In this document: positions 5,107-63,768 of the stretch, in pieces
Position numbering within the stretch: the first letter of the stretch is position 1
Layout of the letters: every line of letters starts with the position of its first letter
DNA from: a virus
Lineage: Duplodnaviria; Caudoviricetes
IMG/VR virus record: IMGVR_UViG_3300037067_018912
Span: 96,001-160,000 of that record
Reading direction: 5' to 3' (one strand)
DNA length: 64,000 bases
Notes under the pieces: model-generated
Told to the model about the DNA's origin: nothing
The model's database searches: none
The model's input: only the letters and a program-made list of their open reading frames with translations
Translations under genes and position numbers: made by a program

Positions 5107-5937
5107 TTATTTAAGTCCTTGTATTAATTTATCGCCATATTTGACTCCATCATAACCCAATTGTTTCGCTTTTTCGGCGATTGCCTTGCTTTTAAGGTTC
5201 TTCGGATCAGCATCGTATTGGCCGCTTATTTTTTCAAAATTTATATGTGGAAACCACATCTTTGCCACAATATCGACAGGGTCTTGACTGTCCTTGTAAG
5301 CCACCCCTAATTCATTCGTGTCAAGTAAGTTGTCAAAATCAATTTGATATTTACTGAAACCATCAATCGGATTCAAAACAAAGAAATTGCCAACCACAGA
5401 ATTCTCTTTTATTGGGTCTTTCCTGTAAGCAATTATGGTTTTCTGATTCGTTTCAGGTTTTTCTTGCCGGATCGCCTCATTATCCTCTTCCAATGAAGCA
5501 AGGAACTCACTTTGACTTACGCCCGCATCCATTTGGTTCTCATCGTTGATTACCTCATTGTTGGTGGTTTCCTCCATAGCATGCGCCATCTCATATTCAT
5601 AAATGTCTTGAATTTTGTTCAAGACCCTGGCAGCATCCTTTTCGTTTAGATTGATACTGATGGCTTTTAGAGGCTTTTCATCAAGCATCGCACGGACCAT
5701 TCTATGGTGACCATCGAGAATTTTGTTTTGCTCCGCCATCCAAATCGGATTTGAATCATCAAGATTCACCTTTTCTACTTCGTCGGAAAAAGTGACACCC
5801 TGAGACGGTTGCAATTCATTGGGATCAACCTCGACAAAATCATAACCCACACCCTCCTCATCAAGTTTCTCAAGCACATAGTCATATGGTGCATTCATTT
5901 GAGGAAGAAACCGTGGTTTGTATCGCATGTCAATCAT
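5107..5937 (-). CDS. ParB/Srx-like N-terminal domain protein
   Basis: LQPSQ...PIWM...ILDGHHR motif. Start moved to ATG 5937 because the GTATTTAT motif occupies 5952-5959. Confidence 0.65.
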   Translation of the reverse strand: MIDMRYKPRFLPQMNAPYDYVLEKLDEEGVGYDFVEVDPNELQPSQGVTFSDEVEKVNLDDSNPIWMAEQNKILDGHHRMVRAMLDEKPLKAISINLNEKDAARVLNKIQDIYEYEMAHAMEETTNNEVINDENQMDAGVSQSEFLASLEEDNEAIRQEKPETNQKTIIAYRKDPIKENSVVGNFFVLNPIDGFSKYQIDFDNLLDTNELGVAYKDSQDPVDIVAKMWFPHINFEKISGQYDADPKNLKSKAIAEKAKQLGYDGVKYGDKLIQGLK

Positions 5938-5961
5938 TTTGATATTTTCATATAAATACAA

Positions 5962-8900
5962 TCAAATTAATTTTTGAATTTCCTCCTTAATGGTATTCAA
6001 AAGTTTGGATTCCGTCAACGCCAAATTACCCTTATCAGCAAAATAAATATTGAATCTCACATTTTCGGGAATCTGATTTTTGATAGCATTATACGCCTCT
6101 AATTCAACATCCCGGTCTTCATAGACATTGATTTCTTGGATATCTGGAAATTCTTTCAAATAATTCAAGACTTTCTGCCCCTTGTCGAGATCGTCGTCCC
6201 CATTTTTCATATCAAGCCTATCAACATGAACACCACCCCTTTTCAATATCTCTTCAACTTGAGGGCGCAACTTCTCGATCCTCGACGTTAGAATGAGGAC
6301 ATATGTACCCGGTGTCGACTTCTCCTTTTGATATTGGTTGTAGATACCGGGAAATGGTTTGATATCAAAAATATCCAAATCCAAACTTTCAGGTTTACTC
6401 CACCATCCGATATGAGGGTATTTCTCACCCGTTTTTTCAGTCCATTCTTGCTTCCCGACCTCTGGATGTGGTGAATTCATCAACGTACCATCGAAATCAA
6501 ATATTGCAAGCCTTTTCACCCCCCTTGGTGTGTTCTGTGGGGTTTCAATCAGTTGGTTCTCAACTTCCTCAATCTTCCCCGTTACTTTAAATCGAAATCC
6601 AAGTGGTTTCCAATCCGTCAATTCTTTGGACATGGCTGGTTTTCCACCCGCTTCTTTATTGATCGCCAATGTTATATGAGGTTTTGTACTTTCGCTCGGA
6701 TACCCGGTAACACCAACAGCCATCACCAAATCATTCAATGCATAATCGACAATATTGAGTGTGATTGTTTTACTCCCTTTCATATCCAAATATTCTTTCG
6801 AATTGGGATCAAGTTCATCGAGCCTTATTGTCATGTGATGTGCAACAACCTCCCATCCTTCGGGGATCATGGCCTTGAAAACTTTCAATAACTGTTTTCT
6901 CGATTCCTTGTCAAGTATCACCCCGGTGTATGAAACCCTTTTCATTGGAGGTCTCTCTTCAACACCTTCATTCAGGACCTCCCTATCAGTCAACATCCAA
7001 CGTAATTCGTTCTTTAATCTTTCATCATTTACCAAATCGGGGAACTCGTCTTCCAAAAATCTCAACACAGATTCTTTTGACGGATCGTGAAACCTACCCC
7101 CGGCGTTCCATTGGTCGTATTTGTCGATGAATTGATCAAGATTCAACGATTTCACCCCTTCTTGAATATCGGCGATGTCTCTCTTAACATCAACACCTTT
7201 GTTCTGCTGTGCGAATTTCATCAATTCCTGCTTGTCGTTTCTTAATTTATCGGCATATATTTTCAAAAGTATGCTTTTAAGCATATCGCCAATCTCGCTG
7301 CCTTTAAATCCCAATGTCATTAAATCATTTCCGTTCACAGTCAATTCGCCAAGAGTCTTCGGGTATTTTCCCTGCACCAACTCTCGTGCTGCATTCTCGA
7401 TATTTTCGGGCAATATCGTACTTTGAAAAGTCTGTGGGGACAAGACGTACACATTATGAGCAATCGCTCTCGCCTTGACAGGATTGGATTCCTGCGAACC
7501 ATTGTAGGCGGTGTCAAGTGCCTTAATCTCCTTGTATGTGTTGATGTCGCCTCTCAGATTATTTTTGTAATATCCTGCAGGGTTCGGATTGAGGTGGATT
7601 AATAGAAATATAAACTCACCCATCGTCTTCACATCCTCGAAAGGACTCCTATCAATTGTTGATTGTTTAATGTCAAACCCAAAAATATTTTGGAAGAGTC
7701 CTGTATTTTTCAATAATTGCGCACCCATACGCTTATTGCCTTTTTTGACAATCTTATCGAATTCAATAAGAACCCTTTCAGCCGGAATTTCTTTTATTCT
7801 ACCTGCATTGGTTTGGATCATTTTCATCGTTTCTGGCTCAATTGTGAACCCAAAACGTGCTGCAAATTGAACCGCACGAAGCATTCTCAACGGATCATCA
7901 CTGAACGCCTTGGGATTGACGATGCGGATTATCTTGTTTTTTAAATCCTCCCGTCCGCCATAAGGATCGACTATATTACCCTCACTGTCTTTTGCAATAG
8001 AGTTGATAGTGAAATCCCTTCGTTCCAAATCCTTTTCGATTGGCAAGGCATGATCCGAAGTCACGCTGAATCCATGATAGCCGCCTTCTCCCGTCGGTGT
8101 TTCAGTTCTTGGTATAGCGACATCGACCTCCTCGCCACCTCTCGGTTTGAATTTCAATATACCGAAAGATTTTCCAACGGCGTTAACCACACCGTACTTT
8201 GAAAGGATTTTTTCAAGTTCATCGAAGGGAATTCCCGTAACAAGAATATCCAAATCCTTACTTTCTTTGCCAAGGAATTCATCCCGGACAGCACCACCGA
8301 CAGAATATATCTTTCCACCCACCGCTTCAACGTCATTTTTGAACGGCAGGTCAGTCAATGACGTCGACACCGCCTCGTTCAACGATTTTGGCAATCTGTA
8401 CATTGATTCAGATGTTTGATAATCAGCGTGAGTTCCCTTGTTGGGAACAAATCCATACGATTTATACCATTTCTTCAATCTCTCTTTGCTTGCACCCCAA
8501 ACATTATCCGGTGTTAATGTTAATATTTTATTGTTTTTGTCGGCGAAATCAATCAAGAGTCTCATCGCTTTATCGGCGAATCCACGTCCCCTAAATTCCC
8601 TGTGGATGATGATTTTATTTAAAGTAAGGTATTGGTTCTTCCTATCGGTGAGTTCCATCTCACCCACAATTTCACCGTCGTTAATAATATTATGTACGTT
8701 CCATCCACCCCCGGTGCTACTTGCAGGCAAATTTACGGTTAGTTCCTCTTGTACCCCACCATTTTCATTCACGGCATACGCTAATTGAGGTAATTCAATC
8801 ACTCCATACCGTCTGTTGAGATATTTTAGAATAGATTCGTCCGTATAATCCAATAATTTCCCGATCTCATACCCTTCTTCCGGTGTCATGTCTGCCGTAT

Positions 8901-10485
8901 AACCCCCGTGAGTTTTCATAATGTCGTGCAGCCTGTTCGCCTGATTCTCATAGCCTTTCCTGTAAACAAGGACGGGTTCAAAACTTGCAGGATGATTCGT
9001 TTGCTGTATCGGTATAATACCAAATCCTGCTTCTTTAACTCTGTCACGGAGCATGCGCCCACCAGTCAATCCGAAATTAATGAAACCAACATTTTTGTCA
9101 CCCGCAATCATCGAGTCAACGGTTTTTTCGTCCGAAAAACCCTCACTTGCATCAACCTCTTCTTTCAACGATCCATTTTCTTCCGCACCAATTTTTTCCG
9201 CCTTTATTATTTCAATAATATTGGGGTTATATATTATATAATGTTTTCTGTTATTGGGTTTTTCTATTATTTGACCGTCATAACCCAATCCTACCATTGC
9301 CCGTACAAATTCCTTGGGGTAATACCTAAAAAAATCATACCATACTTGTTGAAACAAATCTTTTTCATTCTTGGAATATTTAAAAAACGAATCGATGGCC
9401 GCATATAATCCCTTTTCAGGATTTTCTGACCAATTAGTCGCACTGTCCTCCCAAGTCGGAGACATTTTGATCAAATTCACCAATTCTTTTGGAGAAACTT
9501 TTCTGTGGGACGATTCGTCAAGTAACTTTCTTGGTGACAATCTTACTGTATGCATATAACCGCCATGACCGCCATACATCCATGCATCATCATAGTCGTT
9601 TGTAAAATAAATGCCAGGTCCTTCTTGATCCGTGGCTTTTTCAGCACCCACAAACTCATCGGTGAAACTATCAATTTTATTTGGAGAACCATGAAAGGCC
9701 AAAATACCACCTTCTTCAAAAGTTGTAATCGATTCGCCAATTGGTTTGATATCAAGATTGCTTATGTCGCCCTGGTTGCAAGCGGCACTTGTATTCCCCA
9801 TACCTCCGAGTCTGCATTTCTTCTTGACGCTGACGGCACTGCTGCCGGGCATATAGGATTGTAATCTCTCGTTTAAATTCTCACGGGTTAATTCTTCAAG
9901 CACCTGCCGGATTGTCTTAATATGAAAATCACGGTCTTCTTCTTTCAAGAACCCAATAACAGTAAACATTTGTTGCAACGCATCCACTGGGTTTATAAGA
10001 ACAAATTCCTTATATTTGAAACCTTCCTTACGAATGTAATTGATTATGTCTTTCAACGCCTTAATGAAACCCGCTTTGTCGCCGTTATTAAATGCGTTTT
10101 CCATTGCAGGGAAATAATCGTTCAACACTTCGCCTGCAATCCTTTTTGCGAGATCGATTTGTTCGTTAACATCACCCTCCCTCGGAACAGCATGTTTTAT
10201 TATCCTGGTAAGATAATAATCAATCCCTTCCGCCTCGGTCATAATGAACCTGTCTTTGGTAGCATCACCAACATGGTTATATTCCAAATCCTCGCTCAAA
10301 TTCTCTTGCGGTGGAAATTCATCTTGTCCAACAGCAGAATCGGTTGAGAATTTCGAAGACCCGTCTTCATCAACTGTATTGGGGGTCACGGCGGTCATTC
10401 CGTTTCTTATATCAGCACCACCGCCGATATCCGAAAGAATATCGTCATTGCCGTCGGCGTTGAATAATTCATGTAATTCATCCAT
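5962..10485 (-). CDS. Multidomain RNA-end repair polyprotein: ART-like, GNAT, CCA-adding/poly(A) polymerase-type nucleotidyltransferase, 2H phosphoesterase, HAD phosphatase
   Basis: FHGSP..GPGIYFT (~9.2-9.7 kb); EFRGRGFA...WYKSYGF (~8.4-8.7 kb); VGGAVRD, DLDI, RRDFTINSIA, DDPLRMLRAVQFAARFGF (~7.3-8.3 kb); HHMTI and PHITLA (~6.6-6.9 kb); FDFDGTL...YEDR (~6.0-6.5 kb). Confidence 0.85.
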   Translation of the reverse strand: MDELHELFNADGNDDILSDIGGGADIRNGMTAVTPNTVDEDGSSKFSTDSAVGQDEFPPQENLSEDLEYNHVGDATKDRFIMTEAEGIDYYLTRIIKHAVPREGDVNEQIDLAKRIAGEVLNDYFPAMENAFNNGDKAGFIKALKDIINYIRKEGFKYKEFVLINPVDALQQMFTVIGFLKEEDRDFHIKTIRQVLEELTRENLNERLQSYMPGSSAVSVKKKCRLGGMGNTSAACNQGDISNLDIKPIGESITTFEEGGILAFHGSPNKIDSFTDEFVGAEKATDQEGPGIYFTNDYDDAWMYGGHGGYMHTVRLSPRKLLDESSHRKVSPKELVNLIKMSPTWEDSATNWSENPEKGLYAAIDSFFKYSKNEKDLFQQVWYDFFRYYPKEFVRAMVGLGYDGQIIEKPNNRKHYIIYNPNIIEIIKAEKIGAEENGSLKEEVDASEGFSDEKTVDSMIAGDKNVGFINFGLTGGRMLRDRVKEAGFGIIPIQQTNHPASFEPVLVYRKGYENQANRLHDIMKTHGGYTADMTPEEGYEIGKLLDYTDESILKYLNRRYGVIELPQLAYAVNENGGVQEELTVNLPASSTGGGWNVHNIINDGEIVGEMELTDRKNQYLTLNKIIIHREFRGRGFADKAMRLLIDFADKNNKILTLTPDNVWGASKERLKKWYKSYGFVPNKGTHADYQTSESMYRLPKSLNEAVSTSLTDLPFKNDVEAVGGKIYSVGGAVRDEFLGKESKDLDILVTGIPFDELEKILSKYGVVNAVGKSFGILKFKPRGGEEVDVAIPRTETPTGEGGYHGFSVTSDHALPIEKDLERRDFTINSIAKDSEGNIVDPYGGREDLKNKIIRIVNPKAFSDDPLRMLRAVQFAARFGFTIEPETMKMIQTNAGRIKEIPAERVLIEFDKIVKKGNKRMGAQLLKNTGLFQNIFGFDIKQSTIDRSPFEDVKTMGEFIFLLIHLNPNPAGYYKNNLRGDINTYKEIKALDTAYNGSQESNPVKARAIAHNVYVLSPQTFQSTILPENIENAARELVQGKYPKTLGELTVNGNDLMTLGFKGSEIGDMLKSILLKIYADKLRNDKQELMKFAQQNKGVDVKRDIADIQEGVKSLNLDQFIDKYDQWNAGGRFHDPSKESVLRFLEDEFPDLVNDERLKNELRWMLTDREVLNEGVEERPPMKRVSYTGVILDKESRKQLLKVFKAMIPEGWEVVAHHMTIRLDELDPNSKEYLDMKGSKTITLNIVDYALNDLVMAVGVTGYPSESTKPHITLAINKEAGGKPAMSKELTDWKPLGFRFKVTGKIEEVENQLIETPQNTPRGVKRLAIFDFDGTLMNSPHPEVGKQEWTEKTGEKYPHIGWWSKPESLDLDIFDIKPFPGIYNQYQKEKSTPGTYVLILTSRIEKLRPQVEEILKRGGVHVDRLDMKNGDDDLDKGQKVLNYLKEFPDIQEINVYEDRDVELEAYNAIKNQIPENVRFNIYFADKGNLALTESKLLNTIKEEIQKLI

Positions 10486-10487
10486 TG

Positions 10488-11102
10488 TTACTTCTTATTG
10501 TAATGTTTATCATATATGTCATTGGTCAACCCATAATCAACCAAAACAGCCGTAGGCTTACCATTCCGGAGAATCTCACCATAAGTATTTATACAACTCA
10601 AATCCCCAAAATGAATATCATATTTAAAAACAAATTCTTCAAATTTTATGATGAAATTATCCCCATTCATATTATTTTCGATATTGACGGGCAATAAATG
10701 TCTCTTCTCGTTTCCCCTTCGTACTTCACCACAATTCACCAAATAAAAATAAACATCTTTCAACTTAAACCCTGTCAACTCCTTGAATTTTTTCAAGGTA
10801 ACCCTTCCGGCTTTTTCTGCAACCACCCAATCCTTGCAATCATTACTGTCAAGAACGTTGGCAAGAAATTCAAACCTCCTGTCCGTCCACCGGGGCAGGA
10901 AAGACGCCTCCACCGCATTTTGCATGAGACCTTCTTGGTTCACTGCCAATTTAAAAATTTTGGCGTCGTCGAATTCATACACGAATCTACCTGATCCACG
11001 GGCGATCTTCTTTAAACGTTTGTTACAATATTCAATCCTTTTTACAAAAGTATCGATTCCATTCAAACCTTCCAAAAAATTTGAAAATTCAATTTGTGTC
11101 AT
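10488..11102 (-). CDS. Protein kinase-like fold protein
   Basis: ARGSGRFVY..KIFKLA..QNAVE..GDLSCINTYG..LVDYG resembles the Gly-loop, Lys, catalytic loop and DFG-equivalent. Confidence 0.55.
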   Translation of the reverse strand: MTQIEFSNFLEGLNGIDTFVKRIEYCNKRLKKIARGSGRFVYEFDDAKIFKLAVNQEGLMQNAVEASFLPRWTDRRFEFLANVLDSNDCKDWVVAEKAGRVTLKKFKELTGFKLKDVYFYLVNCGEVRRGNEKRHLLPVNIENNMNGDNFIIKFEEFVFKYDIHFGDLSCINTYGEILRNGKPTAVLVDYGLTNDIYDKHYNKK

Positions 11103-13064: not shown

Positions 13065-13853
13065 TTAATCGTATTTTTTAAACGTCAATGTAATGTATTC
13101 AATCAAATGCGGTACTGTGTCGAGATATTCCATCTCCTCAACGCTGAACCACCCATATTTCGTATTTTCTTTCTGATCAAGTGCAATATCGGCAGTGTCA
13201 CCATTGAACCTGCAAGCAAAAATATGCTCGATACTATCTGAATGCCTTTGAATGCTGAATGTCTTGATGAATTTTTTTATGTCGAGATCGGTTTCTTCTT
13301 TAATCTCCCTTTTAACGGCCTCTTCTGGGGATTCTCCTTTTTCAATACCGCCGCCGACCAACGCCCATTTATTGGGCATCCAATATTCCTTATGATCCGC
13401 ACGTTTTAAAAGAAGAATTTTATTGTCATCGTTCACAATTATTGCAACCGCATTTTTCTTCAATTCCTTCTTGTCTTTCTTTTTTTCCTCATTCAACACA
13501 GGTGTTTGCGAAGGCTGCAATTCCAAATTTGGATTGACATTTGCATCTTGTGTGACTTTTTTCGCTTGTGCAACAGCATTCCTATCTGTTGCAAGGGAAG
13601 TCTCAATGAATGATTTCATCAAATCACCCCCGGCAAGTGCATACTGCATCTTGTTGTTAACCTGTTGATCAAAATGATCGAAAAAGTTCTTCAACCTCTT
13701 CATGTCCTGATAGGTTATACTGCCGTTTTTTAAGAGGAATTTGGCTCTTTTAACGCCTTCACCCCCCGGAGTGGATACCAAGGTCGCCTGGATGTATTTC
13801 AGCACGTCAGGTGGAATCCTGTACGTTTTATCGTATAATTCCGAGTTCATCAA
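13065..13853 (-). CDS. Nudix hydrolase with an N-terminal domain of unknown function
   Basis: Nudix box GGIEKGESPEEAVKREIKEETDL. Confidence 0.85.
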   Translation of the reverse strand: MMNSELYDKTYRIPPDVLKYIQATLVSTPGGEGVKRAKFLLKNGSITYQDMKRLKNFFDHFDQQVNNKMQYALAGGDLMKSFIETSLATDRNAVAQAKKVTQDANVNPNLELQPSQTPVLNEEKKKDKKELKKNAVAIIVNDDNKILLLKRADHKEYWMPNKWALVGGGIEKGESPEEAVKREIKEETDLDIKKFIKTFSIQRHSDSIEHIFACRFNGDTADIALDQKENTKYGWFSVEEMEYLDTVPHLIEYITLTFKKYD

Positions 13854-63392: not shown

Positions 63393-63493
63393 TCAATGCC
63401 GATATTGAATGTGGTGTCGGCCTAATTCGGCCTCGATCTTACACTGTCTATCATCAGAACCACTAAACCACTCTCATGATCTCAATATACTTG

Positions 63494-63567
63494 TAGCGGG
63501 AGAGGGATTTGAACCCTCGAACTCTTGGTTATGAGCCAAGCGAGATGCCGGACTTCTCCACCCCGCA
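63494..63567 (-). tRNA. tRNA-Met(CAU), initiator-like 1:72 mismatch, CCA not encoded
   Basis: UGCGGGG UG GAGA-AGUCCGGCA-UCUC G CUUGG-CUCAUAA-CCAAG AGUUC GAGGG-UUCAAAU-CCCUC UCCCGCU A. Confidence 0.9.
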
Positions 63568-63644: not shown

Positions 63645-63768
63645 AAGGATAGTTTGTTTGTTGTCTTGTTTTTAACAAAATCGGACTTGAACCGACAACG
63701 TACTGCTCTGAAGGCAATTCCTCTTCCAATTGAGGTATTTGTTTACTGAAACAACACTCAGTTTCCTT
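63645..63768 (-). ncRNA. Module RNA F: complete tRNA-like body (63672-63744, anticodon UCA) extended at its acceptor ends by the module
   Basis: AAACAAA UA CCUC-AAUUGGAA-GAGG A AUUGC-CUUCAGA-GCAGU ACGUU GUCGG-UUCAAGU-CCGAU UUUGUUA, inside AAGGA-AACU-N11-CAGU...AGACAACA..UCCUU. Confidence 0.8.

Follow-up and report, generated by a model that had tools for sequence, protein, structure and literature searches.

What can a phage do with several unrelated enzymes joined in a single protein chain? The question is raised by a locus of the IMG/VR phage IMGVR_UViG_3300037067_018912, a 357,275-bp genome with direct terminal repeats. A 64,000-nucleotide stretch of it, genome positions 96,001-160,000, was analyzed and is called the window here; positions refer to the window unless marked as genome positions. 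At 5962-10485 on the minus strand lies a single uninterrupted reading frame of 1507 amino acids (aa). In this open reading frame (ORF), a sequence-only reading had recognized an ADP-ribosyltransferase (ART), a GNAT acetyltransferase, a class II CCA-adding-type nucleotidyltransferase, a 2H phosphoesterase and a HAD phosphatase, and had proposed that the five form a complete line for healing tRNA 3' ends. All five domains were found to be present, by hidden Markov model (HMM) searches and motifs and, for the 2H and HAD domains, also by folds with Z scores of about 13. The catalytic motifs were intact in each of the five.

The chain comprises at least eight modules and is a genuine modular polyprotein. 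Parts beyond the original five are an N-terminal leader, a Cys-loop motif, two modules designated "mid" and "link," and a kinase-like ORF immediately upstream. The explanation that we consider reasonably probable combines three elements: a CCA/2H/HAD unit acting on tRNA 3' ends, a set of swappable extras, and probable cleavage of the chain at the module junctions.

A conserved CCA/2H/HAD unit in a hypervariable slot

Database searching yielded 119 giant homologues (about 930-2500 aa) from metagenomic contigs, the largest of them 366 kb, and 80 IMG/VR loci were compared. The genes belong to a clade of uncultured jumbo phages of roughly 320-366 kb. At the 80 loci, the flanking gene order was identical on both sides of the slot that holds the polyprotein, with PolB, o13854, Nudix, WYL-like and o11164 genes before it and ParB-like, o4748 and glycosyltransferase genes after it. 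The content of the slot is hypervariable while its position is fixed. Its modules are fused or split into ORFs of their own, differing from locus to locus, and the modules of the query occurred in 46 orders among the 119 relatives, the order in the query itself being unique. The phage collection gave 516 matching records, none of which covered even 80% of the query; the best of them extended over the CCA part only, at 38.6% identity.

The CCA module was present in all 119 proteins and at all 80 loci, with 49-77% identity across all relatives. A 2H domain of the query type was found at 74/80 loci and a HAD domain at 66/80, always after the CCA module and either fused to it or encoded by adjacent genes; in 62 of the 66 HAD-bearing loci, HAD was a separate downstream ORF. 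Four loci without the conserved flanks (L066, L067, L072 and L077) encode a compact protein of about 700-1040 aa in the order 2H-CCA-HAD. Because the three domains are fused in two orders and keep their adjacency when separate, which is the strongest computational evidence obtained here, CCA, 2H and HAD appear to constitute a conserved, functionally linked unit. ART (4/80 loci, 18/119 proteins) and GNAT (11/80 loci, 35/119 proteins) occurred at varying positions and would fall outside that link. The proposed five-enzyme line was thus upheld for its CCA-2H-HAD part, and ART and GNAT were not supported as steps of it.

Module junctions and a prohead-type protease

In the relatives, a short motif, [LIVM]xE (mostly LNE, INE, MNE or VNE), lies a few residues ahead of the CCA, 2H, GNAT, "mid," "link," ART and Cys-loop modules, whichever module is upstream. 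When an [LIVM]xE within 14 aa upstream of a module was counted, for which random windows gave a background of 25%, the motif preceded 127/128 fused CCA modules and 69/76 fused 2H modules, compared with 0/36 stand-alone 2H ORFs. ORFs that encode 2H or HAD alone, and most of those that encode CCA alone, start with Met and enter the domain directly, with no leader. Each module fused into the query chain follows such a motif, and the candidate junction residues are E206, E251, E442, E580 (or E574), E705, E1109, E1173 and E1314. The N terminus of the chain itself reads MDELHE followed by LF.

The phage also encodes a Peptidase_S77 (PF03420; E 1.6e-19) of the T4 gp21 prohead protease family, as part of a T4-like head module. 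The gp23-type capsid protein of that module has six [LIVM]xE motifs in its first 59 aa, the last being MINE followed by S, and the ORF adjoining it is scaffold-like and rich in LxE. T4-family prohead proteases cleave after Glu (PMC5694885), and that of T4 trims the packaged ART Alt and internal proteins (PMC9958956). From the presence of [LIVM]xE at fused junctions, its absence from stand-alone copies and the encoded gp21-type protease, we infer that the chain is probably cleaved into about nine pieces, releasing separate enzymes; the cleavage possibly takes place inside the prohead. The reading frame is continuous, as the one-chain picture had it; that the chain works as a single protein is doubtful, as the junctions suggest cutting.

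In the product of the nearby Nudix gene, the hydrolase is preceded by an N-terminal stretch of about 120 aa, and in 50/50 homologues this leader closes with [LIVM]xE, mostly LNE. In this respect, the protein resembles a propeptide-bearing cargo protein.

A further step along this line would make the polyprotein capsid cargo. The chain would enter the prohead whole, the gp21-type protease would cut about eight junctions, and the resulting kit would be delivered with the DNA. Its contents would be the CCA/2H/HAD repair set, the swappable host-modifying enzymes and the 45-aa Cys-loop peptide. We hold this to be a serious but tentative possibility.

Uncleaved, the chain would act in the cytoplasm as one assembly line in which all five enzymes work on damaged 3' ends of tRNA, and the LxE motifs would be mere linkers. 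The continuous ORF with every active site intact agrees with such an arrangement, as do the compact 2H-CCA-HAD fusions, which suggest that physical coupling is useful, and the failure to find a capsid-targeting signal. However, ART occurs in only 15% and GNAT in only 29% of the relatives, at varying positions, the same modules are often separate genes, and [LIVM]xE is specific to fused junctions. On balance, an uncleaved assembly line seems unlikely.

The 2H and HAD domains

The 2H domain carries two HxT motifs, H1217-x-T1219 and H1270-x-T1272 (within PHITL, 1269-1273), and H1217, T1219 and H1270 were each invariant in 62/62 relatives. The query domain itself gave no Pfam 2H match at E<=1 and a weak PHROG match only. 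The corresponding segments of relatives P0042 and P0098 matched PF08302, the cyclic phosphodiesterase (CPD) domain of tRNA ligase (tRNA_lig_CPD), scoring 33 and 26.3 bits (cut-off, 23). For fold comparison of both domains, an AlphaFold model of residues 1174-1507 was used (predicted local distance difference test [pLDDT] score, 78). Model residues 6-137 superimposed on the CNPase catalytic domain with a Z score of 13.1 and a root mean square deviation (rmsd) of 2.2-3.4 Å over 124-128 residues; LigT and 1iuh were matched as well. The top Foldseek rows for the whole model, FNR-like reductases at an rmsd of 17-24 Å, were discarded as spurious two-domain matches, and a 2H-plus-HAD profile gave nothing significant against PDB sequences. 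The proposal of a two-HxT enzyme can thus be narrowed to the CNPase/Trl1-CPD type, by fold and by the PF08302 matches of relatives.

For the HAD domain, the match to PF10307 (HAD_SAK_1; residues 1317-1477) reached 22.2 bits, below the cut-off of 25.6; a relative with 87% identity to the query, P0003, has a precomputed PF10307 match. A match to phrog_415, polynucleotide kinase, was also obtained (E 1.5e-7). The expected motifs were located at D1330-F-D-G-T1334, LILTS (1397-1401), K1435 and EDRD (1456-1459). In the model, the domain matched Pnkp1 (4xrp_A) with a Z score of 13.0 and an rmsd of 2.4 Å over 118 residues, and the 3' phosphatase of T4 Pnkp (5uj0_B) with a Z score of 12.7. The nearest folds of the modeled domain are polynucleotide 3' phosphatases of RNA repair systems.

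Many relatives (P0042, P0022, P0072 and P0099 among them) have a second 2H domain between the CCA and "link" modules. This second domain approached PF13563 and the anti-CBASS Acb1 family PF23474, with scores just under the cut-offs (CBASS, cyclic oligonucleotide-based antiphage signaling system).

These domains could also be imagined to have no part in RNA end healing. The 2H and HAD domains, like the Nudix neighbor, would then be counter-defense enzymes that degrade NAD or ADP-ribose derivatives or small nucleotide signals, for example 2',3'-cyclic nucleotides or signals of the CBASS type, and the CCA module would do nothing beyond maturing tRNAs. The Acb1-like or PF13563-type 2H in the same slot of relatives speaks for this, as does the best structural match of the 2H domain, CNPase, whose substrates are free 2',3'-cyclic nucleotides, and the setting among ART, Nudix and ParB-like neighbors is that of polyvalent proteins (PMC5512222, PMC7824862). 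The best folds of the HAD domain, however, are Pnkp1 of the Pnkp1/Rnl/Hen1 complex and T4 Pnkp, the query-type 2H of relatives matches the tRNA-ligase CPD family, and the fusions occur both as CCA-2H-HAD and as 2H-CCA-HAD. A purely counter-defensive role of the two domains is accordingly judged improbable.

The CCA module and its likely substrates

Matches to PF01743 (E 5.7e-22) and PF12627 (E 8.6e-15) placed the nucleotidyltransferase at residues 719-1096. The Bacillus-type CCA model NF009814 was aligned over positions 16-394 of 396 (E 1.8e-52), with 178.7 bits against an equivalog cut-off of 290, and among solved structures the closest was 1miv, a CCA enzyme of the Bacillus type (E 7e-32), which ranked above PcnB. 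The head motifs were found as GGAVRD (730-735), DLD (745-747), RRD (822-824), DPYGG (840-844), DDPLR (863-867) and ERVLIEFDK (903-911). A C-terminal HD domain was not found in the module, the alignment with NF008137 being limited to positions 2-207 of 409. The genome of the window has one CCA enzyme gene, and each genome examined has this one.

With N73 located by acceptor-stem pairing, the 60 tRNA genes of the genome, which also encodes a transfer-messenger RNA (tmRNA), could be read at their 3' ends. C74 was encoded by 55 of them and CCA by 4, leaving 56/60 without an encoded CCA; positions 74-76 read CAA in 31. The picture was the same in relatives: in three complete genomes of 363-366 kb, each with 53-55 tRNAs, a sample of 119 distinct tRNA genes included 113 with C74 and 8 with CCA. 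In the window's genome as in the three relatives, C74 is retained while C75-A76 mostly is not. Since nearly all of the tRNA genes are without CCA, completion of the phage's own tRNAs is the simplest account of an invariant CCA module, and it is probably the main job of this module. What had been offered as an aside, maturation of CCA-less phage tRNAs, thus probably moves to the center. Two of the tRNAs identified by ARAGORN, with tca (as SeC) and cta (as Pyl), are potential suppressors of UGA and UAG; even so, the standard bacterial code leaves the ORFs examined open.

Another identity, as a poly(A) polymerase or as a host-directed modifier of tRNA ends for shut-off, would fit the head motifs, all of which are common to class II CCA enzymes, A-adding enzymes and poly(A) polymerases, and the missed NCBIfam equivalog cut-off. 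The best matches, however, were full-length Bacillus-type CCA enzymes ahead of PcnB, and with 53-60 tRNAs per phage, nearly all without CCA, and a single such enzyme in each, this identity is very improbable.

The window was correctly described as devoid of an RNA ligase, and this does not hold for the genome, which carries an intact RtcB gene (PF01139; E 1.2e-45) well outside the window. No genome match was found for an ATP-dependent ligase of the Rnl1 or Rnl2 type, which is weak evidence of absence, as the Rnl1 control matched nowhere. RtcB uses phosphate or cyclic-phosphate ends, the very ends that 2H and HAD would remove, and needs no healed ends. Internal breaks would thus be sealed by RtcB without healing, so that the 2H/HAD pair fits terminal lesions better.

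A proposed course of tRNA end restoration

In the explanation that we favor, the 2H domain would open a terminal 2',3'-cyclic phosphate, giving a 2'-phosphate if it acts as the CPD of Trl1 does (PMC6379707). The HAD domain would strip the remaining terminal phosphate, and the nucleotidyltransferase would then add the missing C75-A76 or the entire CCA. The everyday substrate would most likely be the phage's own tRNA set, ends damaged by host defense being a secondary one. The ART, GNAT, NleE-like and kinase-like modules would be interchangeable polyvalent extras, probably modifying host targets and standing outside end healing. The chain would be cut at [LIVM]xE, plausibly inside the prohead, and the enzymes would enter the next host with the DNA.

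Several considerations weigh against this explanation. The CCA-adding activity cannot be separated from A-adding or poly(A) activity by sequence, and the Acb1-like second 2H in the slot implies that 2H domains here can target molecules other than tRNA. No N-terminal capsid-targeting sequence or MuF-type anchor was recognized in the chain, and the leaderless stand-alone 2H, HAD and CCA genes indicate that the enzymes can work unpackaged. The junction motifs could be cut by a different protease or simply connect the modules; moreover, kinship among the relatives inflates the junction counts, and part of the junction motif may be co-inherited with its module. The recurrent upstream motif GTATTTAT (see below) stands before the tRNA clusters and the scaffold/capsid operon as well as before the polyprotein operon, and timing can therefore not be inferred from it. 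Finally, the whole clade is uncultured, and its proteins are known from genes alone.

Swappable modules and neighboring genes

The features of the locus, and those elsewhere in the genome that bear on it, are collected in Table 1.

Table 1. Modules of the polyprotein, neighboring genes and related genome features

Feature	Position	Strand	Basis and remarks
Kinase-like ORF, 204 aa, protein-kinase-like by motifs	10488..11102	(-)	BLASTP and motifs; upstream of and split from chain
N-terminal leader, aa 1-206	9868..10485	(-)	Segments common to relatives; ends NLNE206
Cys-loop motif, aa 207-251	9733..9867	(-)	[LIVM]xE on both sides
ART-PolyVal ADP-ribosyltransferase, aa 252-442	9160..9732	(-)	Triad H265/Y293/D403
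"mid" module, aa 443-580	8746..9159	(-)	Predicted NleE-like alpha/beta fold; folded region given as 436-580
GNAT acetyltransferase, aa 581-705	8371..8745	(-)	Pfam and motif; ends SLNE705
Class II CCA-adding-type tRNA nucleotidyltransferase, aa 706-1109	7159..8370	(-)	Head, neck, body, tail
"link" module, aa 1110-1173	6967..7158	(-)	Kept in 71/119 relatives; ends VLNE1173
2H cyclic phosphodiesterase, CNPase/Trl1-CPD type, aa 1174-1314	6544..6966	(-)	H1217xT, H1270xT
HAD phosphatase, T4 Pnkp/HAD_SAK type, aa 1315-1507	5965..6543	(-)	DFDGT; LILTS; EDRD
ParB-like gene	5107-5961	(-)	
Nudix gene	13065-13853	(-)	
GTATTTAT sites	4650, 11861, 14688, 35501, 49731, 52851 and others; genome-wide		
tRNA genes in window	63493-63567, 63671-63745 (the latter tca, as SeC)	(-)	Remainder at genome 249-283 kb
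cta (as Pyl) tRNA	genome 282,907-282,981	(+)	ARAGORN
T4-like head module	genome 223,732-227,913	(-)	gp21-type protease (genome 227,212-227,913); LxE-rich scaffold-like ORF (548 aa); gp23-type capsid protein
RtcB RNA ligase	genome 348,880-349,941 (locus L003, 1492-2676)	(-)	PF01139

The kinase-like ORF upstream of the chain shows 37-43% identity to residues 1-204 of relatives in BLASTP searches; in 80/119 relatives, its counterpart forms the polyprotein's own N-terminal domain. It matched phrog_4301 (E 3.8e-7), and by motifs read by eye (GSGRFVY, KLA, GDLSCIN and DYG, corresponding to a G-loop, K, DxxxxN and DYG), it appears to be protein-kinase-like. It is separated from the polyprotein by TAA, then CA, then ATG. 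A frameshift or sequencing error at the split was considered and rejected, there being no slippery run and a clean stop and restart, with P0002 beginning at the same Met. The closest relative likewise has the kinase-like ORF detached.

The leader shares the segments DGNDDILSD and EDLEYNHV with relatives and gave no family match. The Cys-loop that follows it, SYMPGSxxVxVKKKCRLGGxGNTSxACNQGDIxNL, is 45 aa long with two cysteines. It recurs in 116/119 relatives at 60-80% identity and once in its own genome; its profile retrieved only 193 clusters among 1.84 billion proteins, and no Pfam family was matched. In one relative (L044:9068-9409), two Cys-loop motifs stand in tandem, each flanked by [LIVM]xE.

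The ART module (residues 246-430) narrowly passed PF18760 (31.5 bits; cut-off, 31.2) and matched phrog_25279 (E 3.9e-32), with each residue of the triad H265, Y293 and D403 invariant in 19/19 relatives. The GNAT module (residues 597-681) matched PF13508 (30 bits; cut-off, 27) and PF00583 (26.6 bits; cut-off, 20.7), and R632 of its acetyl-CoA motif, R632-G-x-G-x-A, was conserved in 36/36 relatives. PDB sequence searches with these two modules yielded nothing informative.

The "mid" module, present in 65/119 relatives, was modeled with a pLDDT of 83. Two structures stood out, 2guk (Z score, 10.0), an uncharacterized protein of Porphyromonas gingivalis, and NleE (4r29; Z score, 9.8), a cysteine methyltransferase effector; the next best match had a Z score of 4.5. 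An Atlas search with the module gave no usable match. Its conserved segment, GGY..D.TPEE..EIG.LL.Y, matched no known catalytic motif.

The ParB-like gene has an "LDGHHR" motif of the ParB/sulfiredoxin type and is syntenic at 70/80 loci. A stretch near its C terminus, "LGYDG," resembles the D403 region of ART. The annotated TTG start of this gene overlaps a promoter-like motif, and the true start may therefore lie downstream.

On the coding strand, the motif (A)GTATTTAT was found 15-45 nucleotides upstream of many starts; the minus strand has 65 occurrences, where about 16 would be expected. GTATTTAT is likely the general promoter element of the phage. The T4-type late promoter TATAAATA was considered as the head of the operon and rejected; it is absent there, and the recurrent motif is GTATTTAT.

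Comparison with known systems

The polyprotein represents a new, CCA-centered form of the polyvalent-protein theme, with an unreported junction rule. Polyvalent proteins were described by Iyer et al. in 2017, who proposed their delivery with the DNA and argued that the 2H domains among them are not for RNA repair (PMC5512222). That paper describes ART, GNAT, kinase and 2H domains, and "CCA" occurs in it zero times. Shared with such proteins are the joining of unrelated enzymatic domains in one chain (an H-Y-D ART, GNAT, 2H and a kinase-like domain), extreme shuffling, and adjoining ParB-like and Nudix genes. The present family differs in that the CCA enzyme is its invariant core, that no embedded peptidase or MuF-type anchor was seen in it, and that its junctions carry [LIVM]xE of the prohead-protease type.

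The CCA enzyme of Escherichia coli was reportedly found by Yakunin et al. in 2004 to have 2',3'-cyclic phosphodiesterase, 2'-nucleotidase and phosphatase activities. CCA addition and removal of 3'-end phosphates would thus be combined in one protein in enzymes of that type (NF008137) as in the polyprotein; here, however, there is no HD domain, and end cleaning would be supplied by the unrelated 2H and HAD domains. With T4 Pnkp and bacterial Pnkp1/Rnl/Hen1, the HAD domain has in common the phosphatase fold (Z scores, 12.7-13.0) and a DxDxT active site. Unlike T4 Pnkp and Pnkp1, it is not fused to a P-loop 5' kinase, and the ligase of this genome is RtcB.

The 2H domain shares its two HxT motifs and CNPase fold with the CPD of fungal and plant tRNA ligases and with vertebrate CNPase (PMC6379707). 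In contrast to the tRNA ligase CPD, it is about 130 aa long, fused to neither ligase nor kinase, and under the level of Pfam detection. The gp21-family protease and the LxE-rich capsid propeptide are features shared with the systems that produce T4 head cargo (Alt and internal proteins) and the ejection proteins of giant phages (PMC9958956, PMC5694885). As in T4 Alt, one module is an ART, and the Nudix neighbor has a long leader ending in LNE. The known head cargo proteins lose a single N-terminal propeptide, whereas up to eight internal sites are predicted in this chain.

Implications for phage biology

The 3' end of tRNA is a target of several bacterial defenses and toxins: CapRel and FaRel2 add pyrophosphate to its CCA (PMC9712102; bioRxiv 10.1101/2024.07.05.602228), and MenT toxins extend it (PMC10435456). 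A phage CCA/2H/HAD unit would directly counter defenses and toxins that disable tRNA 3' ends, and it would be required by phages that bring a near-complete set of CCA-less tRNAs.

A chain that is indeed cut and packaged would exemplify an RNA repair kit delivered from the phage head. It would also disclose a natural rule for loading capsids with arbitrary enzymes, in which a cleavable linker is followed by a module, and more than 40 natural module arrangements in the family are available for testing such loading rules. Should the chain indeed be capsid cargo, the choice between a fused module and a gene of its own would switch an enzyme between pre-packaged delivery and ordinary expression.

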